Source: an uncultured Bacilli bacterium | GTDB lineage: Bacteria > Bacillota_I > Bacilli_A > RF39 > UBA660 | NCBI GenBank assembly: GCA_947589435.1 | Contig: CANQBI010000002.1 | Span: 886 to 64,885, forward strand | Direction: 5' to 3' | DNA length: 64,000 nucleotides | In this document: in pieces, positions 1,787 through 20,439 of the stretch | Layout of the letters: each line of letters opens with the position of its first letter | Numbering within the stretch: the first letter of the stretch is position 1 | The notes under the pieces: model-generated | The model's database searches: none | Told to the model about the DNA's origin: nothing | The model's input: the letters and a program-made list of their open reading frames with translations, nothing else | Position numbers and translations under genes: made by a program

Positions 1787-2428
1787 ATGTTTGTTAAAAT
1801 ACCTTTTGAGAGTGTAATTCCTTTTAAAACACCGATATATGAAATAACCAAAATGTCTTTAGAACATGATTTTAATGTCAATGATGGCGTTGTTTTAGGT
1901 AATTTTTATGTAACTGGAGAATATCGTAGCCATGAAGTAAGTGTGAATAGTGAAAACTTTAAATATACGCTTCCTTTTACGGTTGAACTTAATAATCGCA
2001 TTAAAACTGATACTTTAGAATTTAATATTGAAGACTTTTCTTATGATGTTTTAGAGGGTAATAAGCTAAAAGTTAATATTGAATATTCCCTTGAAGCGGA
2101 AGGCGAAGAAGAAAGAGAAGAATTATTTGAAGAAGTTAAAGATGATGATTTAAAAGAAGAAATGAGCATTTTAGAAGAAAAAGAAGAGGTAAAAGAAGAT
2201 AGTGAAGAAGAAAGAATAAGTCCAGAAGAAGAAAAAACCATTATGGAATCAGTTCCTTTAGATGATGATACCTATGTTACTTATCACATCCATATTGTAA
2301 AAGAAAGTGAAACTTACGAAACCATTAGTACCTTATATAATGTTCCATCATCCTTAATAAAAGAATACAATAACTTAGATGAACTTGCTACCGGTGATAA
2401 AGTCTTAATTCCAAAATGTGATGAATAA
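1787..2428 (+). CDS. SpoVID/SipL-like spore-coat morphogenetic protein (N-terminal SpoVID-type domain, acidic linker, C-terminal LysM)
   Basis: The N-terminus has the pattern F..V.PF...I.EI..MSL....V.D.VVLGNFYVTGEY, which resembles the SpoVID N-domain. An E/K-rich linker follows. The C-terminal YHIHIVKESETYETISTLYNV...GDKVLIP is a LysM motif. The RBS is AGGAGA. Confidence 0.5.
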   Translation: MFVKIPFESVIPFKTPIYEITKMSLEHDFNVNDGVVLGNFYVTGEYRSHEVSVNSENFKYTLPFTVELNNRIKTDTLEFNIEDFSYDVLEGNKLKVNIEYSLEAEGEEEREELFEEVKDDDLKEEMSILEEKEEVKEDSEEERISPEEEKTIMESVPLDDDTYVTYHIHIVKESETYETISTLYNVPSSLIKEYNNLDELATGDKVLIPKCDE

Positions 2429-3317
2429 TTTAGATCATTTAAAAAGTATTTATAAACCTTATCGCTATACCATTAGAGGTAAATGTATGGTTATGGAAAG
2501 CACCAGTGGCAACTTTGTCGTTAAAGAAAGACCTAAAAATAAAGATATTCCGAGTATCTTTAATTATTTAAAAAGTCGTAATTTTAATTATTTTCCCGAA
2601 ATATATATCGATAGTCGAAGTGATAATTACATTTATGAATATATTGAAGATAAAGAAAAAATAAATCCCCAAAAAAGTGAAGATTTAATCTCTTTAGTGG
2701 GGCTTTTACATTCCAAAACCTCTTATAATAAGGAAGTAGAAGAAGAAACTTATAAAGAAATCTATGAAAATATTTTAAGTAATATCCTTTATTTAAAAGA
2801 TTATTATCAAAAACAATATGAAATGTTTTTAATTCCTATTTATATGAGTCCTTCCGAATATGAATTTGTAAGAAACTATTCCAAGATTAAAGCCGCTTTA
2901 GATTTTTCTAATTCTAATTTAGATGATTGGTATAGTAAAGTTAAAAATAAAAGAAGAGAAAGACTTTCTCTAATTCATAATAATTTAAGTATGGATCATT
3001 ATCTTAAAAGTGATAAAGATTACTTAATTAGTTGGGATAATGCTAAATTTGACACTCCTGTCTTAGATTTGTTTAAGTTTTATGAAAGAAGTGCCATTGA
3101 TTTAGAATTTTCTTCTCTTTATGAAAGATATAAAAGTATTAATCCTTTAAATAAAGAGGAAGAAGAACTATTCTTTATCTTAATTAGTTTAGTTCCCAAA
3201 ATAGAATTTAGGGGTAGTGAGTTTGAAAAATGTAAAAATATGCGAAAGGCTCTCGATTATGTTTATAAAACTGAAGAGTTTTTAAAACCATACTATGCGA
3301 CTGATAGCGAAGAATAA
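2418..3317 (+). CDS. CotS/YsxE-like spore-coat kinase-fold protein (aminoglycoside-phosphotransferase-like)
   Basis: The motif LIHNNLSMDHYL...YLISWDNAKFDTPVLDL resembles the HGDxxxxN / DWxxA kinase-like core of the CotS family. It overlaps the upstream gene by 11 nt. B. subtilis ysxE-spoVID are also neighbours. Confidence 0.45.
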   Translation: MMNNLDHLKSIYKPYRYTIRGKCMVMESTSGNFVVKERPKNKDIPSIFNYLKSRNFNYFPEIYIDSRSDNYIYEYIEDKEKINPQKSEDLISLVGLLHSKTSYNKEVEEETYKEIYENILSNILYLKDYYQKQYEMFLIPIYMSPSEYEFVRNYSKIKAALDFSNSNLDDWYSKVKNKRRERLSLIHNNLSMDHYLKSDKDYLISWDNAKFDTPVLDLFKFYERSAIDLEFSSLYERYKSINPLNKEEEELFFILISLVPKIEFRGSEFEKCKNMRKALDYVYKTEEFLKPYYATDSEE

Positions 3318-3455
3318 GAAGAATATTTCAAGGGTTAAGATAAAAATATTGTATCTAAAAGGTAAAATAAACGTAATAATTAATTGATAAAATATTAAAA
3401 TACATAAGCCTAAAGCTAAAAGAATATAGAAAGTGGGATTAGGTCTTGGTCTCAT
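3282..3455 (-). CDS. possible 57-aa hydrophobic peptide, convergently overlapping the end of the previous gene
   Basis: An ATG at 3455 is preceded by AGGTGA with 5-nt spacing. The product MRPRPNPTFYILLALGLCILIFYQLIITFILPF... has two hydrophobic stretches. It is below the length cut-off of the ORF track. Confidence 0.25.
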   Translation of the reverse strand: MRPRPNPTFYILLALGLCILIFYQLIITFILPFRYNIFILTLEIFFLFFAISRIVWF

Positions 3456-3497
3456 TATATCACCTAATATATTATATTTATCTTATATTTTTTAGTG

Positions 3498-3524
3498 AAA
3501 CATCCAAATAGAGGATGTTTTTTC
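3498..3524 (+). terminator. rho-independent terminator
   Basis: The stem AAACATCC / GGATGTTT is followed by a T run. Confidence 0.6.
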
Positions 3525-3592
3525 TATTTAGTAATTATTTAAAATATTAGTAATATAATATAAGGAAATTATATCTTTTTTTGTAAATAAGC

Positions 3593-3635
3593 GATATTTG
3601 TCAAAAATTAGTAAAAATATATCTTGACAAATATC
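3593..3635. repeat. perfect 12-bp inverted repeat GATATTTGTCAA / TTGACAAATATC, 19-bp spacer
   Basis: The arms lie at 3593-3604 and 3624-3635. The right arm contains the -35 hexamer of the surface-protein promoter. Confidence 0.85.
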
Positions 3636-3654
3636 ATACGGGGGGGGGTATAAT
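3624..3654 (+). promoter_or_regulatory. sigma-A-type promoter with a G9 tract in the spacer
   Basis: TTGACA (3624-3629), then a 19-nt spacer ending in G9, then TATAAT (3649-3654). An AAGAGGA RBS and the ATG at 3683 follow. Confidence 0.7.
3640..3648. repeat. G9 homopolymer tract
   Basis: The sequence reads atacGGGGGGGGGtataat. It is one of only two G/C runs of 7 or more that I saw in the window. Confidence 0.95.
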
Positions 3655-3682
3655 TAGGACATAGAAAGGAAAGAGGAAAAAA

Positions 3683-5092
3683 ATGAAAAATTTAAAAATG
3701 TTTGCAATTGCTGTTATGGCATTCGCTGTAATGGCTATGGGTGTTCATGCTGATAATGTCGCAAGATATACTGATAAAGACGGTTATAAACATGAATTTA
3801 CTACTTTAACACAAGCTTTAGCAGATGTTAAAGATTCTGAAGAAAATGTAACTGTAACTGTTTTAAAAGATATTACTAATGAAACATTTACTGCCGTTAC
3901 AATCAGCGGTAAAGTTACACTTGATTTAGATGGACACAAGGTTTCTTTAACTGGTGGAAATATTAAAGTTGAGAAAGGTACTTTAGTAGTTACTGGTAAA
4001 GAAGGAAGTACAATTTATAGAACTGGAAATACTGGAGGGACTTTATTTGTTGTTCTAGGAAGAAGTTCTCATTTAACTGTTGATACAAATGTAACAGTTG
4101 GATCAAAAGATTCAACAGATACTGCTGTTGGATTATTTAGTGACAAGGGCGCTGCACAATTAGGAAGTGCTGTTAATGCTACAATTGATATTAAAGGAAC
4201 TTTATTATCTAAATCAGGATTTGCTTTCAGTGTTGAAGGATGTGTTGAAGAAGCAGAAAAAAATCCTGCTAAAGTTACAATCTATGATGGAGCAAAATTA
4301 GTTAGTAAAGAAGGCATGGCTTTATATCAAGCTGGTTATGCTATAACAACTATTGGAAAGGCTACAATTGAAGGAGATAGTGGTGTTGGCGCTAAAGCTG
4401 GTTCTATTACATTTAATGGAACTACTGTTACTGCTAAAGGTGAACACGTTGATGAAGCAGGAGATATGAATGGCGGAATCAATGCTGTTGGTGCTGCTAT
4501 TCAAGTAGAAAGTAGTGAAGAAGGAACAACATATGCAAGTCCAGCAACTATTACATTAAATGGTGGTACTTATACATCTGAAAAAACAAATGCAATAGTA
4601 ATTAACAACTGGAGTAAGACAAAAACTGCCTTAGATGAAAAATCAGTTATTGATGGTGGAGCTGTATTAAATAGTGCTGAAGATGAAGATGGTGAACCAT
4701 TACCTGGTATTGCTATTACTGCTGCTGAAAAAGATATAGCTGAAAAATTATTAACAAATCTTGAAGGCTTTGTTAAAGATGCAGAATTTAATGGTGCTAT
4801 TGTTGGAGATTTACTTGTTGGTGATAACACTAAAGATGCTAGTGCTATTCAAGCTACTTTAACAAAAGGTTCTAATGTTAACACTGATGATGAAGGTAAT
4901 ACTACTGTTGGTGGTAATACTGAAGGACAACAACCAGGAACTACAGAACCAGGAACAACTGGTGATGGAAATCAAGGTGGAACAGAAAACGTTAAAAATC
5001 CAGAAACTAATGATAATATCTTAGTATATGCTGGTCTAGGACTAGTAAGTCTTGCCTCTGTTGCTTTTACAGCAAAGAAAAGAGAAGACTAA
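3683..5092 (+). CDS. cell-surface protein with signal peptide and C-terminal sortase-type sorting signal (NPETN + TM + KKRED)
   Basis: The N-terminal signal MKNLKMFAIAVMAFAVMAMGVHA is followed by a Gly/Thr/Val-rich repetitive beta-strand-like body. The C-terminus is NPETNDNILVYAGLGLVSLASVAFTAKKRED. Confidence 0.75.
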   Translation: MKNLKMFAIAVMAFAVMAMGVHADNVARYTDKDGYKHEFTTLTQALADVKDSEENVTVTVLKDITNETFTAVTISGKVTLDLDGHKVSLTGGNIKVEKGTLVVTGKEGSTIYRTGNTGGTLFVVLGRSSHLTVDTNVTVGSKDSTDTAVGLFSDKGAAQLGSAVNATIDIKGTLLSKSGFAFSVEGCVEEAEKNPAKVTIYDGAKLVSKEGMALYQAGYAITTIGKATIEGDSGVGAKAGSITFNGTTVTAKGEHVDEAGDMNGGINAVGAAIQVESSEEGTTYASPATITLNGGTYTSEKTNAIVINNWSKTKTALDEKSVIDGGAVLNSAEDEDGEPLPGIAITAAEKDIAEKLLTNLEGFVKDAEFNGAIVGDLLVGDNTKDASAIQATLTKGSNVNTDDEGNTTVGGNTEGQQPGTTEPGTTGDGNQGGTENVKNPETNDNILVYAGLGLVSLASVAFTAKKRED

Positions 5093-5235
5093 TTAAATAA
5101 GTTACCTAATTTTGTTAAATAAATTGTTTAAATAGAAATTTAGGGACTCGCAAACACCCTAAAATTCATTCTCACAAACCTTTCCACATAACTTGTGGTA
5201 ATTGTAAAACAATTATTAACAAATTGGTATAAATG

Positions 5236-5265
5236 AAACATACTATTTCGGTAGTATGTTTTTTT
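5236..5265 (+). terminator. rho-independent terminator
   Basis: The stem AAACATACTA / TAGTATGTTT is followed by a T run. Confidence 0.7.
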
Positions 5266-5330
5266 GAACAGCTTGATAAAGTATCGAATTTGATATATAA
5301 TATTGTTGCGATATGTAAAGGTGGTCTAAA

Positions 5331-5510
5331 ATGAATTGGTTAAAGAAAATATTTGGTATTAAGAAAAATGTAGAGTATGAAAGTGAAGCTGACTTAGAAC
5401 GAGTGAAATGGACTAGAAAAGATTCAAGTCAAGTAGATAAAGATATGCCTAAATGGCTAGTTAAATTTTTTGAAGAAAATGAAAATGAAGAAAGAAATAG
5501 CAAAATTTAA
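5331..5510 (+). CDS. hypothetical 59-aa protein
   Basis: It has its own promoter (TTGATA 5273-5278, 17-nt spacer, TATAAT 5296-5301) and an AAAGGTGG RBS. A hairpin plus T run at about 5492-5533 follows the stop. No recognisable motif. Confidence 0.4.
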   Translation: MNWLKKIFGIKKNVEYESEADLERVKWTRKDSSQVDKDMPKWLVKFFEENENEERNSKI

Positions 5511-5569
5511 AATTTAAAACTATTTCTTTTTTTAATGGGCGTTTTTTAATCAAAAAATAAATTAAATAT

Positions 5570-5600
5570 AACTTGAGGTGCCAGTTTGGCACCTCAAGTT
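5570..5600. repeat. palindrome/hairpin 1: AACTTGAGGTGCCA gtt TGGCACCTCAAGTT (14-bp arms)
   Basis: The arms are perfect complements and there is no adjacent T run. Confidence 0.9.
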
Positions 5601-5719
5601 AAGAAAAATAATTTTATAGTTCAAAATATTTTCAAGTTCCTAAGTTGGGACCTTAGAAATTATACATATAAATTGGAATTAACAATAATAATGTTTTTGC
5701 GTTTATTAACAAATATATT

Positions 5720-5746
5720 TTTAAGGTCGCAAATTGCGACCTTAAA
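5720..5746. repeat. palindrome/hairpin 2: TTTAAGGTCGCAA a TTGCGACCTTAAA (13-bp arms)
   Basis: Perfect inverted repeat. Confidence 0.9.
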
Positions 5747-5778
5747 GAAGTAATAGTAGTCAATATATTTAAATTGAT

Positions 5779-5805
5779 TTTTCGGTTTCATATTGAAACC
5801 AAAAA
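5779..5805. repeat. palindrome/hairpin 3: TTTTcGGTTTCA tat TGAAACCaAAAA
   Basis: A 7-bp core is extended by 4 A-T pairs across one mismatch. Confidence 0.7.
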
Positions 5806-5870
5806 CATAAAATCATCAGTGTATTATAAAATTAGTTATATAAATTCTTTCTTTAAGTTAGAATTTGTTT

Positions 5871-5897
5871 TTTGTGGTCGCAATTTGCGACCACAAA
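5871..5897. repeat. palindrome/hairpin 4: TTTGTGGTCGCAA t TTGCGACCACAAA (13-bp arms)
   Basis: Perfect inverted repeat. Confidence 0.9.
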
Positions 5898-5939
5898 TAA
5901 TAAATTAAAATGCAAATTACAAAAATGTTACAAAAGTTC

Positions 5940-5968
5940 TTGACAAATATTAGTTCGCACAATATACT
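5940..5968 (+). promoter_or_regulatory. promoter of the ORF6N gene
   Basis: TTGACA, a 17-nt spacer, then TATACT. The extended -35 string CTTGACAAATAT is identical to that of the promoter at 3623. Confidence 0.55.
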
Positions 5969-6007
5969 TGATATAAAGTTGTAAGCATAGAGAGGAGATT
6001 AACAATA

Positions 6008-6916
6008 GTGAATAACTTAATAGTAAGTGAAAATGAAATAACAAATAAAATTTATAATATCAGAGGAGTTCAAGTAATGCTTGATAGTGATTTGGCAGAA
6101 CTATATCAATGTAAGAATGGAACTAAAGAAGTTAATCAAGCTGTAAAAAGAAATATAGATAAATTTCCAGAAGATTTTTATTTTCAATTAACTAAAGAAG
6201 AATATAATAATATTTCAAGGTCACATTTTGTGACCTTGAAGAAAGAAAATAAAAGGGGTTATAATCTTAAATATTTGCCTTATGTTTTTACTGAAGGTGG
6301 TGTAGCTATGCTTGCTACAATATTGAAAACTGAAGTTGCATCAAAGGTTAGTGTAGCTATAATGAAGGCTTTTGTTATAATGCATAAATATATATCTAAT
6401 AATTTACTTGAACAAAAATATATAAATAATCAGGTATTTAAAAATACAGAAGATATAAAAGTATTAAAAGAGTCTTTTGACAGTTTTAAAGAAACAAAAA
6501 AAGTAAATGAAATATATTATGATGGACAAATATGGGATGCTTATTCTAAAATACAAGATATATTTAAACTTGCTAAAAACAAATTAATTATAATAGATGG
6601 TTATGCAGATAATAGTGTCTTAGATATTATAAAAAGGTTAGATAATATAGAAGTAGTAATAATAACTAAACCAAATAATTTATTAACTAAACAAGACATA
6701 GAGAAATATAATAAACAATATCATAATTTAAAAGTAATATTTAATAATAGTTTTCATGATAGATATTTTATATTAGATGATAAGACCATCTATCACTGTG
6801 GTTCTTCCATAAATAGAATTGGTTATAAAACGTTCAGTATAAATCTAATTAATGATAAAGAAATAACAGATTATTTCTTAGGAAAAGTAAAAAATGTAAT
6901 AAAAAATAAAAATTAG
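6008..6916 (+). CDS. ORF6N-domain DNA-binding protein fused to a PLD-like (HxK-type, K replaced by R) C-terminal domain
   Basis: The N-terminus IRGVQVMLDSDLAELY...VKRNIDKFPEDFYFQLTKEE...LKYLPYVFTEGGVAMLATIL is a typical ORF6N domain. The C-terminal HDRYFILDDKTIYHCGSSIN fits HxKxxxxD(x6)GSxN with K changed to R. GTG start with GAGAGGAG RBS. Confidence 0.7.
   Translation: MNNLIVSENEITNKIYNIRGVQVMLDSDLAELYQCKNGTKEVNQAVKRNIDKFPEDFYFQLTKEEYNNISRSHFVTLKKENKRGYNLKYLPYVFTEGGVAMLATILKTEVASKVSVAIMKAFVIMHKYISNNLLEQKYINNQVFKNTEDIKVLKESFDSFKETKKVNEIYYDGQIWDAYSKIQDIFKLAKNKLIIIDGYADNSVLDIIKRLDNIEVVIITKPNNLLTKQDIEKYNKQYHNLKVIFNNSFHDRYFILDDKTIYHCGSSINRIGYKTFSINLINDKEITDYFLGKVKNVIKNKN
6214..6240. repeat. palindrome/hairpin 5, inside the ORF6N coding sequence: TTCAAGGTCACA ttt TGTGACCTTGAA
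   Basis: Perfect 12-bp arms. It encodes the conserved SRSHFVTLK stretch of the ORF6N domain. Confidence 0.9.
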
Positions 6917-14932: not shown

Positions 14933-16186
14933 ATGGAGAGTGAAAGACTAGTAAAACTTAAAATGCGTAAAATCTATAAGTTAGGTTTATCATTTGTGGG
15001 ATTACTAATCTTTTTAACTTCTTTTTTAGGGGTATGTTACTTATTTTATGATAAAGTAATAGATCCTTCCAATGATATTGAAGTAAATGGAGCTTTATCC
15101 ATTAATTATGTTGATGGTAAAAGTTTTGATATTACTAAAAATAATAAAATAAAATTTTCGATTTCTAATAGTAGTGAAGATGTGCAATATTATAATATTG
15201 TTTTCTTAAAAATAAGAGGAGATGGAAGTTATAAAATTTTATATAATGATACTTTAATTAATGAAGGAAGTCTTAGTACGAAAGATGAAGTAGCTACGGA
15301 TTCTATTAGTATTGATGCTTTAGAAACTAAGATATATACCTTAGAAATTGATTCTAATGAAAATAATTTAAAAGGAGTAGTTAGTGTAAGAAGTTCTAAA
15401 GGTAAACAAGAAAATTTTGCATCGACTATTTTAAAAAATAATCCTTTTAGTGATAATTCCTTAACTAAAATTGGAAGTGATGCTGGAGTGGAAAATGAAG
15501 GCTTAATTAAAAGCAGTGATGATATTGGGGTATCTTACTTCTTTAGAGGTAATATATCTAATAATTATGTTAGTATTAATGATGTATTATGGCGAATTGT
15601 AAGAATTAATGGTGATGGCACTGTAAGATTAGTTTTAAATGATGTAACTAATGCGGTATCTAATTATTATAATACTGGGGAATTTGTTACGGATTATAAA
15701 GAAAGTAATATCTATTCTTATTTAGATACTTGGTTTCAAGAAAACTTAAGAGGTTATACATCAAATGTGGCTAATACAAGATTTTGTAATGATACAAGTG
15801 TTAATAATGAAGGTATATATTCGTCATATGCGCGGGTTATAACTAATAAAATACCAACTTTTAATTGTTTAAGTAATTCATTTACAAGTAAAATAGGCAT
15901 TTTAAGTGTGGATGAAGTCGTTATGGCCGGAGCTTATCCTGATGGAGGTAATAATAATTATTATTTATATAATAGTGAAATAAGCGATTCTTGGTTTACC
16001 ATGAGTGGCGCCAAGGGAAGTGATGCAACGCTTAATCTCTTTATGATTGATGCCAGTGGTAAAATAAAAAGTGATATAGCTGGAAGTGCTTATCACAGTG
16101 TCCGTCCTGTTATTAATTTAATTAAAAATACGCAAGTTACGGGTGATGGAACAATAGATAATCCTTACCAAATCGTTACCGAGTAA
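14933..16186 (+). CDS. membrane-anchored surface protein related to the C-terminal domain of cassette proteins B1/B2
   Basis: The N-terminal TM is LGLSFVGLLIFLTSFLGVCYLF. Motifs shared with B1/B2: YFFRGN.SNNYV...LWRIVRINGDGTVRL, GILSVDEV, SWFTMSG, VRPVINL...TGDGTIDNPYQIV. Confidence 0.6.
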   Translation: MESERLVKLKMRKIYKLGLSFVGLLIFLTSFLGVCYLFYDKVIDPSNDIEVNGALSINYVDGKSFDITKNNKIKFSISNSSEDVQYYNIVFLKIRGDGSYKILYNDTLINEGSLSTKDEVATDSISIDALETKIYTLEIDSNENNLKGVVSVRSSKGKQENFASTILKNNPFSDNSLTKIGSDAGVENEGLIKSSDDIGVSYFFRGNISNNYVSINDVLWRIVRINGDGTVRLVLNDVTNAVSNYYNTGEFVTDYKESNIYSYLDTWFQENLRGYTSNVANTRFCNDTSVNNEGIYSSYARVITNKIPTFNCLSNSFTSKIGILSVDEVVMAGAYPDGGNNNYYLYNSEISDSWFTMSGAKGSDATLNLFMIDASGKIKSDIAGSAYHSVRPVINLIKNTQVTGDGTIDNPYQIVTE

Positions 16187-18355: not shown

Positions 18356-18445
18356 ATGAAGAAAGAGAATAAAAACTTAGTATTATATGTAGGATTAACT
18401 ATATTAGTAGTTCTAATAAGTAGCATCGGGGGGGGGTTATTGTAA
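18356..18445 (+). CDS. 29-codon leader ORF carrying a G9 tract (probable detached N-terminus of the next gene)
   Basis: An AAGAGGT RBS lies 9 nt before the ATG. The product is MKKENKNLVLYVGLTILVVLISSIGGGLL*. The G9 tract at 18428-18436 encodes GGG. The stop comes 2 codons later. Confidence 0.6.
   Translation: MKKENKNLVLYVGLTILVVLISSIGGGLL
18428..18436. repeat. G9 homopolymer tract inside coding sequence
   Basis: The sequence reads gcatcGGGGGGGGGttattg. Confidence 0.95.
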
Positions 18446-18572
18446 CACCCTAATATCTTTAGTATTCATACCATTTAATAATCTAAAATATAAACTTTAT
18501 AATATAAAAGAAAAATATAATAATTTAAAATATAAACGAGAAATAACCTATATCATTCTCGGTCTTTTTGTT

Positions 18573-19184
18573 ATGACTTTATTTAGAATAATAAGCACCA
18601 CTCATGCTTATTATAATTATGAGATGGCTCCAGTACCTATATTTACCAGTAAAGTTGGAAACTTTGCTGGTGAAGGAGAAACAGTAAAAGATGGCCCTTT
18701 AAGTGGTAAAAGTACAGATGTTAATGTTATATGGTATACTCAAATGCCAGATAATCCAAAGAAGTATAAAGAGAATAAAGAAGTACCAGTAACAGGATTT
18801 ACATTAAATCAAGATATATCTAATTGTTATCCTAAAAATAATGAAGACGGAACAACATATAATCCAGATTATAAAATAAGTGAAGATGGAACAGTAGATA
18901 TAACAGTATCCGAAACTAAACCAAATCAAATAGTATGTCGATTATATTATGATAGAGATAAGATATCAGATGTAATAGTATATGCTTATATTCAAGACAC
19001 AACTGGTGATAGAGAATATGAAGGAAATAAATATAAAATGAGTAGTACAATACCAACAGGAAAGACATATGTAGGATATAAATGTTCCAATACAAGTGTT
19101 GCCACCAATATAAATTACAATGATACAGATGGATTTACAATAGATACAGATGGACCAAATACATGTTATGCTTATTTTAAGTAA
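18573..19184 (+). CDS. cassette 1 protein A1: secreted protein with TasA/camelysin-like (SipW-type) signal-peptide motif, as annotated lacking most of its signal peptide
   Basis: It is a paralogue of 54608-55324. Shared features are THAYYNYEMAPVPIF..VGNF, two Cys-bracketed modules (..C..-x30-40-..VCRLYYD and ..CSN..-..CYAYF) and the C-terminus GPNTCYAYFK. The homologous N-terminal residues EKYNNLKYKREITYIILGLFV lie upstream of the first ATG. Confidence 0.6.
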   Translation: MTLFRIISTTHAYYNYEMAPVPIFTSKVGNFAGEGETVKDGPLSGKSTDVNVIWYTQMPDNPKKYKENKEVPVTGFTLNQDISNCYPKNNEDGTTYNPDYKISEDGTVDITVSETKPNQIVCRLYYDRDKISDVIVYAYIQDTTGDREYEGNKYKMSSTIPTGKTYVGYKCSNTSVATNINYNDTDGFTIDTDGPNTCYAYFK

Positions 19185-19197
19185 GGAGTGAAAATAT

Positions 19198-20439
19198 ATG
19201 AAAAAGAAAATAATCTTAAAATTAATAGTTATATTAATAACAATAGGAATAATCTATGAAGGGTATGGGATGATAAAAGAATTTAAAAAATCAAATAAAG
19301 TTTTAGAGGACATTAAAACAATAGATGTATTCAGTAAGAAAGATAAATCACTAGCTATAATGATACAAAATGATGGAATAAGCGCAGATGAAACAGAATA
19401 TGGCTGGCATGAGGCAGAAGATAGAAGTAAATGGCCAGATAAAAATACCTACACATATGCAGGAGCCGAGTGTACTGATAGTGAAGGAGTAAGTGTGCCA
19501 AGTAAAAATATTTTGTCATTTGATGAAACAACATATACAGCACACATTAAAACAAAACAAACCATATATTGTACGCTATACTTTGGAAAAGGAAGACATG
19601 CATTAGAAACATTAGACGCTCAAGGAGGACAATATTATGCAAATGGAAATAATACAGCAGTAGAAGGATTATATAGATTTAAAGGGACATATAGTCAAGT
19701 AACAAATAACTTTATCTGTATAGGAGGACCAAAAAACCCCGAAACATGCGGAAGTGTCGAAGGAAACAAATACTTATATAGAATAATAGGAGTAACAGAT
19801 GGGACCGAAGCAGCAGAAAGTAATTCATTAGGATTAGATAAAGGAATGCTAAAAGTAATAAAAGTCATACCATCAAGTACAAACCAAAAATGGGCTTCTT
19901 CTTCTAATAAATATGATAATTTCACATGGGACTATGAGCCTAGTTCTCAGACAACTGGAGCAATGGCGAGATGGACATTAAATAATACATTCTATAATGG
20001 ATTAGGAGGAGAAAAAAATTTAATAAAAGAGGTATATTGGTGGAAAGGAGATAGAAATAATGCACCATCAAGTGGAGCTGAAGCAAAAACAAGAACAAGT
20101 GAAAAATATTCAATAGGCTTAATGTATGCAAGTGATTATTATAATTCATGGACATATCCAACAGCCTCTTATGGGATTCACAACGATAGTTGGCTTCACC
20201 TTTCTCGAACTATGAGTGGAAAAACAAATACATATCAATCTAAATATGAATGGACCATGACCAGAGGTGGAGAAACCGTTTCTAGTATAATTGATGGTGA
20301 TGGTTTTGTATCCTATATAGATCTTACTTATTCGACTATAGTTCGCCCAGTATTTTATCTAAAATCAGATGTTGCTATAATGGGATTTGGAACAGAACAA
20401 AGTCCATACATAATAACATCTCCTCTAATAAATAATTAA
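19198..20439 (+). CDS. cassette 1 protein B1: membrane-anchored surface protein
   Basis: The RBS is AAGGAG. The N-terminal TM is ILKLIVILITIGIIY, followed by one Cys-bracketed module (AECTD...IYCTLYFGKG). The C-terminal domain carries LYRIIGV, GLMYASDY, SWLHLS, VRPVFYL...GFGTEQSPYIITS. By eye about half the residues are identical to B2. Confidence 0.7.
   Translation: MKKKIILKLIVILITIGIIYEGYGMIKEFKKSNKVLEDIKTIDVFSKKDKSLAIMIQNDGISADETEYGWHEAEDRSKWPDKNTYTYAGAECTDSEGVSVPSKNILSFDETTYTAHIKTKQTIYCTLYFGKGRHALETLDAQGGQYYANGNNTAVEGLYRFKGTYSQVTNNFICIGGPKNPETCGSVEGNKYLYRIIGVTDGTEAAESNSLGLDKGMLKVIKVIPSSTNQKWASSSNKYDNFTWDYEPSSQTTGAMARWTLNNTFYNGLGGEKNLIKEVYWWKGDRNNAPSSGAEAKTRTSEKYSIGLMYASDYYNSWTYPTASYGIHNDSWLHLSRTMSGKTNTYQSKYEWTMTRGGETVSSIIDGDGFVSYIDLTYSTIVRPVFYLKSDVAIMGFGTEQSPYIITSPLINN

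Follow-up and report, generated by a model that had tools for sequence, protein, structure and literature searches.

A run of nine guanines (G9) between the -35 and -10 hexamers of a surface protein promoter probably acts as a slipped-strand transcriptional switch of the vlp/porA type, as judged from its sequence context. The tract lies in a 64-kb stretch of DNA from an uncultured Bacilli bacterium, which we refer to as the window, and it recurs at the promoters of a family of related genes in genomes from the rabbit gut. Most likely, the system represents a known type of switch in a new gene family and a new lineage. Our literature searches turned up no account of the family, nor of any poly-G promoter switch in low-GC gut Firmicutes with a cell wall.

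Anatomy of the Promoter

The promoter and its surroundings occupy positions 3593-3682 on the forward strand of the window. The -35 hexamer TTGACA (3624-3629) and the -10 hexamer TATAAT (3649-3654) are separated by a spacer of 19 nt (3630-3648), which consists of ten non-G nucleotides, AATATCATAC, followed by the G9 homopolymer (3640-3648), the candidate slippage-prone element. A preliminary description of the locus had placed TTGACA at 3624, a 19-nt spacer ending in G9 after it and TATAAT at 3649, and reading the sequence bears out all of these coordinates. The hallmark of vlp/porA-type loci, a homopolymer of at least about 7 nt between recognisable -35 and -10 hexamers, is thus present here, and TATAAT stands 28 nt 5′ of the ATG at 3683 that opens a 469-aa ORF. 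Our promoter scanner takes spacers of 16-18 nt only, which is the sole reason why this promoter with its 19-nt spacer was overlooked.

Upstream of the spacer, sequence reading revealed the two arms of an inverted repeat. The left arm, GATATTTGTCAA (3593-3604), contains a -35-like TTGTCA (3598-3603), and the right arm, TTGACAAATATC (3624-3635), follows after a gap of 19 nt. As described previously, the -35 hexamer doubles as the start of the right arm. Directly 5′ of the -35 is an A+T-rich stretch, AAAATTAGTAAAAATATATC (3605-3623), which is kept in the promoter cassette of the family as AAAATTAG[T/C]AAAAATA and may act as an UP element. Downstream of the -10, the 5′ leader CATAGAAAGGAAAG with its ribosome-binding site (GAGG at 3673-3676) spans positions 3660-3682 and is kept across cassettes. 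Transcription would start near A3661.

The gene upstream of the surface protein promoter encodes a ysxE-like spore coat protein (2418-3317, matching the YsxE profile). It is followed by an intrinsic terminator at 3497-3521, with a 9-bp stem, a 7-nt loop and a T-run. Because this terminator ends the upstream gene, the surface protein promoter is self-contained and insulated from read-through.

Long G runs are not expected in DNA of this base composition, which is 26-32% G+C across the window. Just two runs of at least eight G occur in the 64 kb, at 3640 and 18428, while shuffled sequences lead to an expectation of 0.08 and none of 100 shuffles matched the observed count.

Other readings of the region were rejected. 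Rfam had no match in positions 3000-6500 when searched for a leader RNA or riboswitch, and as the G tract also lies 5′ of the predicted transcription start, this reading was dropped. For a divergent minus-strand promoter based on the TTGACA of the left arm, the sequence offers no suitable -10 at a distance of 16-19 nt. A tandem upstream promoter based on the TTGTCA at 3598 scores only 9/12, with TATCTT as its -10, and is unconserved.

A Probable Class B Sortase Substrate with a Predicted β-Solenoid

The gene at 3683-5092 on the forward strand encodes a protein of 469 aa with a signal peptide, a predicted all-β solenoid body and a disordered linker rich in Gly, Thr and Pro. The signal peptide, MKNLKMFAIAVMAFAVMAMGVHA (3683-3751), is of the Sec type and is cleaved before D at an AXA-type site (VHA, followed by D); a lipobox Cys is absent at or near the cleavage site. 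At the opposite end, positions 4997-5089 encode a C-terminal sorting signal, NPETN-DNILVYAGLGLVSLASVAFTA-KKRED, in which a hydrophobic segment and then a charged tail come after the motif. Together, the signal peptide and the sorting signal point to exposure on the cell surface. The TNDNILVYAGLGLVS run and most of the C-terminal tail are invariant among 18 aligned family proteins.

The NCBIfam profile LPXTG_anchor (TIGR01167) matched the protein at 16.0 bits, with a cutoff of 15.9. NPxTN is the motif type of class B sortases, as in IsdC of S. aureus (NPQTN), and the Sec signal peptide, NPxTN motif, hydrophobic segment and charged tail that characterise class B sortase substrates are all present. 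The earlier reading of the protein as a sortase substrate therefore stands and can be refined to class B, based on the signal peptide, the NPETN sorting signal and the sortase genes that lie beside relatives of the gene.

Pfam detected no domain in the surface protein. An exact-protein look-up returned no record for it, nor for P0004, and a plasmid collection contained nothing matching. In an AlphaFold model (pLDDT 84, pTM 0.81), the protein forms an all-β solenoid over residues 25-410. Foldseek found no significant match to this model, the best E-value being 0.018 and TM-scores being around 0.3. The top matches, all below significance, are right-handed β-helices and include PL6 lyases, phage tailspikes, the PfbA adhesin and autotransporter passenger domains. 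Judging by the model, the secreted surface protein is probably β-helical.

The spore-coat genes ysxE and spoVID-like adjoin the surface protein locus, and a penicillin-binding protein gene was found in the related locus L002. These genes indicate that the host is walled and spore-forming.

The orthologous gene in L001 (4001-5409), which comes from another sample, is split into ORFs of 261 and 208 aa, one A having been lost from an AAA run (window position ~4394). The coverage of this contig is 3x, so the split may be an error or reflect a pseudogene.

A Family of Paralogs Shares the Promoter Cassette

A protein search identified 39 relatives of the surface protein among 5.8 billion sequences, often several on one contig. 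When aligned, the family proteins are nearly invariant in the signal peptide and over their last ~30 residues, and ~30% identical in the body. This is the architecture of a variable surface antigen.

We scanned genomes, one per species, for the -10 hexamer and leader (TATAAT-N5-CATAGAAAGGAAAG), leaving the spacer unconstrained. The scan returned 23 loci, 21 of which were in nine genomes annotated as ‘uncultured Bacilli bacterium’ from rabbit (‘Lapin’) gut metagenomes. L009 and L014 were chance matches. Scanning JGI metagenomes with the -10/leader pattern gave 14 matches, all of which were unrelated look-alikes consisting of a promoter and a ribosome-binding site.

The complete cassette, TTGACA-N10-Gn-TATAAT-N5-CATAGAAAGGAAAG-ATGAAAAATTTAAAAATG, is present at a minimum of 35 promoters in the window, two ENA contigs and the nine rabbit-gut genomes (27% GC). 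Family genes often form tandem arrays, such as the four copies in 8 kb of L018. Of the 34 scorable family promoters, 32 retain all six positions of the -35 hexamer TTGACA, and the non-G part of the spacer measures 10 nt in every G8 or G9 promoter that retains this hexamer. The leader CATAGAAAGGAAAG is identical across family promoters but different in the divergent L021 lineage. The sequence 5′ of the -35 has likewise diverged in that lineage, yet GATAC-G9/G8-TATAAT is retained. In 234 kb of related DNA, we found 30 G runs of at least 8 nt, all at surface protein genes: 28 at family promoters, one at L010:7050 and one being the coding tract of the window described below.

The run at L010:7050 (minus strand) is a G9 between TTGACA and TATTATATAAT, 5′ of the gene for a different envelope protein, which has 554 aa and an N-terminal anchor. 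This protein is distantly similar (27% identity) to the one encoded at 19198-20439 of the window. At L011:1360-1410, ~24 bp have been deleted between two TTG(T/A)CAAA repeats, so that the -35 is lost and a TTGTCA stands 21 nt from TATAAT; this family promoter is probably dead.

A class B sortase gene is located directly upstream of a family member in L010 (626-1390, minus strand), L019 (2468-3232, minus strand) and L004 (72-719, plus strand). The genes in L010 and L019 match TIGR03064 with 184 and 192 bits (cutoff 153.75), and L004 contains a homolog. The Pfam Sortase domain matches the sortase gene beside a family member with an E-value of 2.5e-14. No sortase gene was found within the 64-kb window.

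Tract Length and Spacer Length

Among the family promoters, 21 have a G9 tract and a 19-nt spacer. Four have a G8 tract and an 18-nt spacer (L010:465, L013:1027, L015:3220 and L021:2269), each in a separate genome, with some of the G8 calls deriving from low-coverage assemblies. Some G8 and G9 copies have identical flanks, for example L013:1027 (G8) and L018:6864. Shorter tracts were seen once each, as G6 (L019:2365) and G5 (L004:855), and six promoters of the TTGACAAAAAGAAAAGAAGTGAAGTATAAT type have no tract. In all of these promoters without a long tract, the spacer is 18 nt. No G7 or G10 was found among the family promoters.

In three genomes, the family member beside the sortase gene combines an 18-nt spacer with a tract of G8 (L010), G6 (L019) or G5 (L004), which indicates that the spacing was conserved during tract decay. 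This copy looks ‘locked-on’.

We also surveyed the spacers of near-consensus promoters (at most one mismatch in 12) in 263 kb of this lineage, excluding the family itself. Spacers of 17 nt (n = 28) and 18 nt (n = 26) were common, and the 19-nt class (n = 6) was at background, similar to non-functional spacings. The relevant optimum in this lineage looks to be 17-18 nt, in which case the loss of a single G would suffice. The preliminary description had assumed an optimum of 17 nt. From these lengths, we infer that G8 (18 nt) would be on and that G9 (19 nt) would be low or off; G7 is presumably on.

In the switch that we propose, the G9 run would be the variable spacer part of a sigma-A-type promoter for a sortase-anchored, β-helix-like surface protein. 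Slipped-strand mispairing during replication, presumably at a high rate, would lead to the gain or loss of one G. A G8 tract would restore the 18-nt spacer found in relatives without a long tract and in many ordinary promoters of the lineage, resulting in high transcription, while a G9 tract would give a 19-nt spacer in which the -35 and -10 hexamers are misaligned, resulting in low or no transcription. Each paralog would have a promoter cassette of its own and an exposed body that differs between copies, set between a signal peptide and a sorting signal that are invariant, and copies that switch independently would generate a combinatorially variable cell surface.

How far do the promoters themselves agree with the earlier claim that tract length tunes or switches promoter strength? 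The G8 and G9 copies with identical flanks and the 18-nt spacing of relatives without a tract are in favour of it, and the tract occupies the same position in dozens of paralogs from nine genomes. The comparison of homologous promoters that had been suggested as a check speaks against it in one respect, as orthologs show no difference in length. Across independent samples, orthologous promoters have a consensus of G9 everywhere and no switching event is seen at any single locus (three promoters in three samples, L040-L042, as well as the pairs L043/L044, L045/L046, window/L001 and L002/L017), bearing in mind that consensus assemblies conceal minority tract lengths.

A Second Tract Acts by Frameshift

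The other long G run of the window lies within a putative second contingency gene (18356-19184, forward strand), where the G9 tract at 18428-18436 breaks up the reading frame and leaves an ORF of 29 aa (18356-18445). With G9, translation stops after 29 codons, while a tract of G8 or G11 gives one membrane-anchored protein of 275 aa that continues through to 19184. The homolog P0045 (270 aa, 54% identical) keeps the N-terminal extension across the tract, IGGGYCNTLISLVFIP, and the corresponding DNA (L047, genome Lapin-017 bin11) has a G8 and is in frame. In contrast, the L048 ortholog has a G9 and is split into ORFs of 29 and 208 aa, as in the window. Poly-G length thus differs between related genomes with an on/off consequence.

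The region 18356-19184 looks like a translational contingency locus. Both G9 tracts of the window had been proposed to control exported proteins. This holds for the outcome but not for the mechanism, as the second tract is an intragenic frameshift element rather than part of a promoter.

Taken further, the promoters and the coding tract could belong to a Vlp-like combinatorial system of G8/G9 promoter toggles in walled, spore-forming gut Bacilli, a reading to which we give slightly less than an even chance. Each genome would have about ten tandem sortase-B-anchored β-helix proteins, most of them parked at G9 (off). Typically one copy would be at G8 (on), in addition to one that is ‘locked-on’ beside the sortase gene and one that is tract-less. 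Other envelope proteins would have the same poly-G device within their coding regions.

Alternative Explanations

The inverted repeat offers another way to control the promoter. It is perfect over 12 bp with a 19-nt gap, overlaps the -35, and its arm starts lie 31 bp apart, corresponding to about three helical turns. The preliminary description took it for an additional repressor site, and in the strongest form of this idea, a repressor on GATATTTGTCAA-N19-TTGACAAATATC would occlude the -35 as the main control, leaving the G tract a secondary role as in NadR/NadA. The core TTTGTCAA...TTGACAAA is indeed found at the same distance in most cassettes, and nadA of Neisseria meningitidis provides a precedent for a repeat tract near a promoter combined with repressor operators (PMC2791445). 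In nadA, however, the repeats are located 5′ of the core promoter and repressor binding has been demonstrated, whereas the candidate operator of the window is unconserved. Complementarity of 12/12 is limited to the window; elsewhere in the family, with the gap held at 19 nt, it lies between 3/12 and 10/12, with 5-8/12 in many copies, and the left-arm core TTTGTCAA alone recurs in paralogs. Over 3 kb, the L001 locus and the window share 99.7% identity and differ at eight positions, four of which fall in the 35-bp promoter core (3634-3635, 3657 and 3659). At 3634-3635, L001 has GA where the window has TC, reducing the repeat to 10/12 as in the nearest paralogs; GA is also present in L045, L046, L012 and L011. 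Six copies in one genome have TTGACAG, a direct repeat of the -35, in place of TTGTCAA, and L021 promoters have no left arm but still have the G tract. Across the homologous promoters compared, the repeat is not conserved and no compensatory changes in the arms were found, while the right arm is constrained in any case by being the -35. An additional repressor site is therefore unsupported, and we regard a repressor as very unlikely to be the main control. The promoter-core variants are shared with L045 and L046 in a mosaic pattern, pointing either to gene conversion between the promoters of paralogs or to a template switch. Both processes would be expected to yield a two-base change that makes a quasi-palindrome perfect. 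Inverted repeats with perfect 12-bp arms no more than 40 nt apart occupy ~14 distinct sites in the window, most of them hairpins, compared to 1.3 12-mer hits in first-order Markov simulations, a roughly tenfold excess. It is unlikely that the repeat at the -35 arose by chance, yet it is one of many hairpin-like repeats and not unusual for the DNA of the window.

If the tract is what matters, it could still be static, with G9 fixed for a structural or regulatory reason such as a low constitutive level of expression, a stiffened or under-wound spacer, or a protein contact. The G8 copies would then be neutral or erroneous, and there would be no phase variation. Such fixation is compatible with the presence of G9 in 21 of the 25 long-tract promoters and in all cross-sample orthologs, with the absence of G7 and G10, and with the poly-T tract beside the -10 of the vpma genes of M. 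agalactiae, whose length does not vary (PMC2268961). A G-rich spacer could alter DNA geometry so that 19 nt works, and gene conversion, instead of selection, could be partly responsible for the high identity of the cassettes. We nevertheless consider a static element fairly unlikely, since G8 occurs in four genomes in cassettes that are otherwise identical, the coding tract has a G8/G9 on/off polymorphism in the same lineage, relatives without a tract retained a spacer of 18 nt and not 19 nt, 19-nt spacing is at background among other promoters, and a run of nine G in 27% GC DNA is a classic hypermutable substrate. A sequencing or assembly artefact, such as poly-G from two-colour Illumina chemistry or a homopolymer miscall, is barely credible. 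Long contigs contain the tract in their interior, dozens of assemblies made independently, by different pipelines and from different samples, have it at the same position of the conserved cassette, and the coding tract encodes a conserved Gly-Gly-Gly in frame. This is despite several contigs starting or ending exactly at the tract or the -10 (L008:1, L049:1, L051:1, L052:1 and the end of L041), as would result from heterogeneous tract lengths or from technical difficulties with poly-G and a repeated cassette, and despite the unrelated sequence that is joined 5′ of the G8 in L025 (3030-3077). The tract and cassette break or mis-join metagenome assemblies, and a practical warning is that poly-G tracts can break assemblies and split genes in metagenome-assembled genomes.

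Comparison with Known Phase-Variable Systems

The slipped-strand switch that we favour has several counterparts. In vlp of M. hyorhinis, maa2 of M. arthritidis and vmm of M. mycoides, insertions or deletions in a homopolymer or short repeat in the spacer switch transcription, as outlined in a passage of PMC2268961 that cites Citti & Wise 1995. Together with porA, these spacer-repeat switches match our candidate in mechanism, in agreement with the vlp- and Neisseria-type likeness noted previously. The closest system in organisation is vlp, which is also a multigene family where each gene has a conserved cassette of promoter and signal peptide and a divergent exposed region, an arrangement that permits combinatorial expression. 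The tract in the vlp group is poly-A or TA, while that of the rabbit-gut family is poly-G. Moreover, Vlps are lipoproteins of a wall-less host with a body of tandem-repeat peptides, whereas the proteins of the rabbit-gut family are Sec-secreted and sortase-anchored in a cell-walled, spore-forming lineage and have a predicted β-solenoid. The resemblance to Vlp is analogous, without sequence homology.

In porA of Neisseria meningitidis, the poly-G tract between -35 and -10 gives high surface expression with 11 G, ~2-fold lower expression with 10 G and ~13-fold lower expression with 9 G (PMC3639595). The rabbit-gut family shares with porA a poly-G tract in the -35/-10 spacer of a gene for a major surface protein. 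However, the Gram-negative pathogen has porA as a single gene, with a tract that accounts for most of the spacer. In the rabbit-gut family, the tract is confined to the 3′ half, directly next to the -10, and is repeated throughout a set of paralogs.

G tracts also control surface structures from within genes. G-tract slippage in Bifidobacterium breve controls a sortase-dependent pilus through an intragenic frameshift (PMC9187656). Like our candidate system, this is a G-tract switch on a sortase-dependent surface structure of a Gram-positive gut commensal. However, B. breve is a high-GC actinobacterium, and its intragenic mechanism matches the tract at 18428-18436 rather than the promoter tract. 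The A+T-rich genome of Campylobacter jejuni contains multiple G8-G11 tracts that are concentrated in genes for surface structures (PMC8437040, PMC13317227). Unlike those of the rabbit-gut family, the C. jejuni tracts are mostly intragenic, in genes for glycan-modifying enzymes, and do not form a promoter-spacer family.

The best-documented cases of phase variation through simple sequence repeats come from mycoplasmas and from Gram-negative pathogens of mucosal surfaces, while the known surface switches of low-GC, walled, spore-forming gut commensals are mostly invertible promoters. If the proposed switch is real, uncultured gut Bacilli would vary their surface in the way that mycoplasmas do. 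Should the combinatorial reading above hold, a walled Firmicute commensal would provide the first phasome in which promoter-spacer repeats drive a multigene family. The signature TTGACA-N10-Gn-TATAAT would then allow the phase state to be mined from metagenomic reads, and a protein family without Pfam domains would be flagged as a likely target of selection by host, phage or immune system in the rabbit caecum.

Additional Features of the Window

Perfect palindromic hairpins are present at 5569-5900 and ~6214, between the surface protein gene and a gene with an ORF6N domain (6008-6916). Examples from this series are AACTTGAGGTGCCA/TGGCACCTCAAGTT, TTTAAGGTCGCAA/TTGCGACCTTAAA and TTTGTGGTCGCAA/TTGCGACCACAAA, for which Rfam had no match. 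In L040, an ORF6N gene comes after the family array as well.

The second G9 gene is flanked by genes at 14933-16186 and 19198-20439, whose proteins have an N-terminal anchor and share the C-terminal motifs YRIIGVT and RPVFYL. The cluster around this gene looks like a set of envelope proteins without Pfam or NCBIfam assignment.
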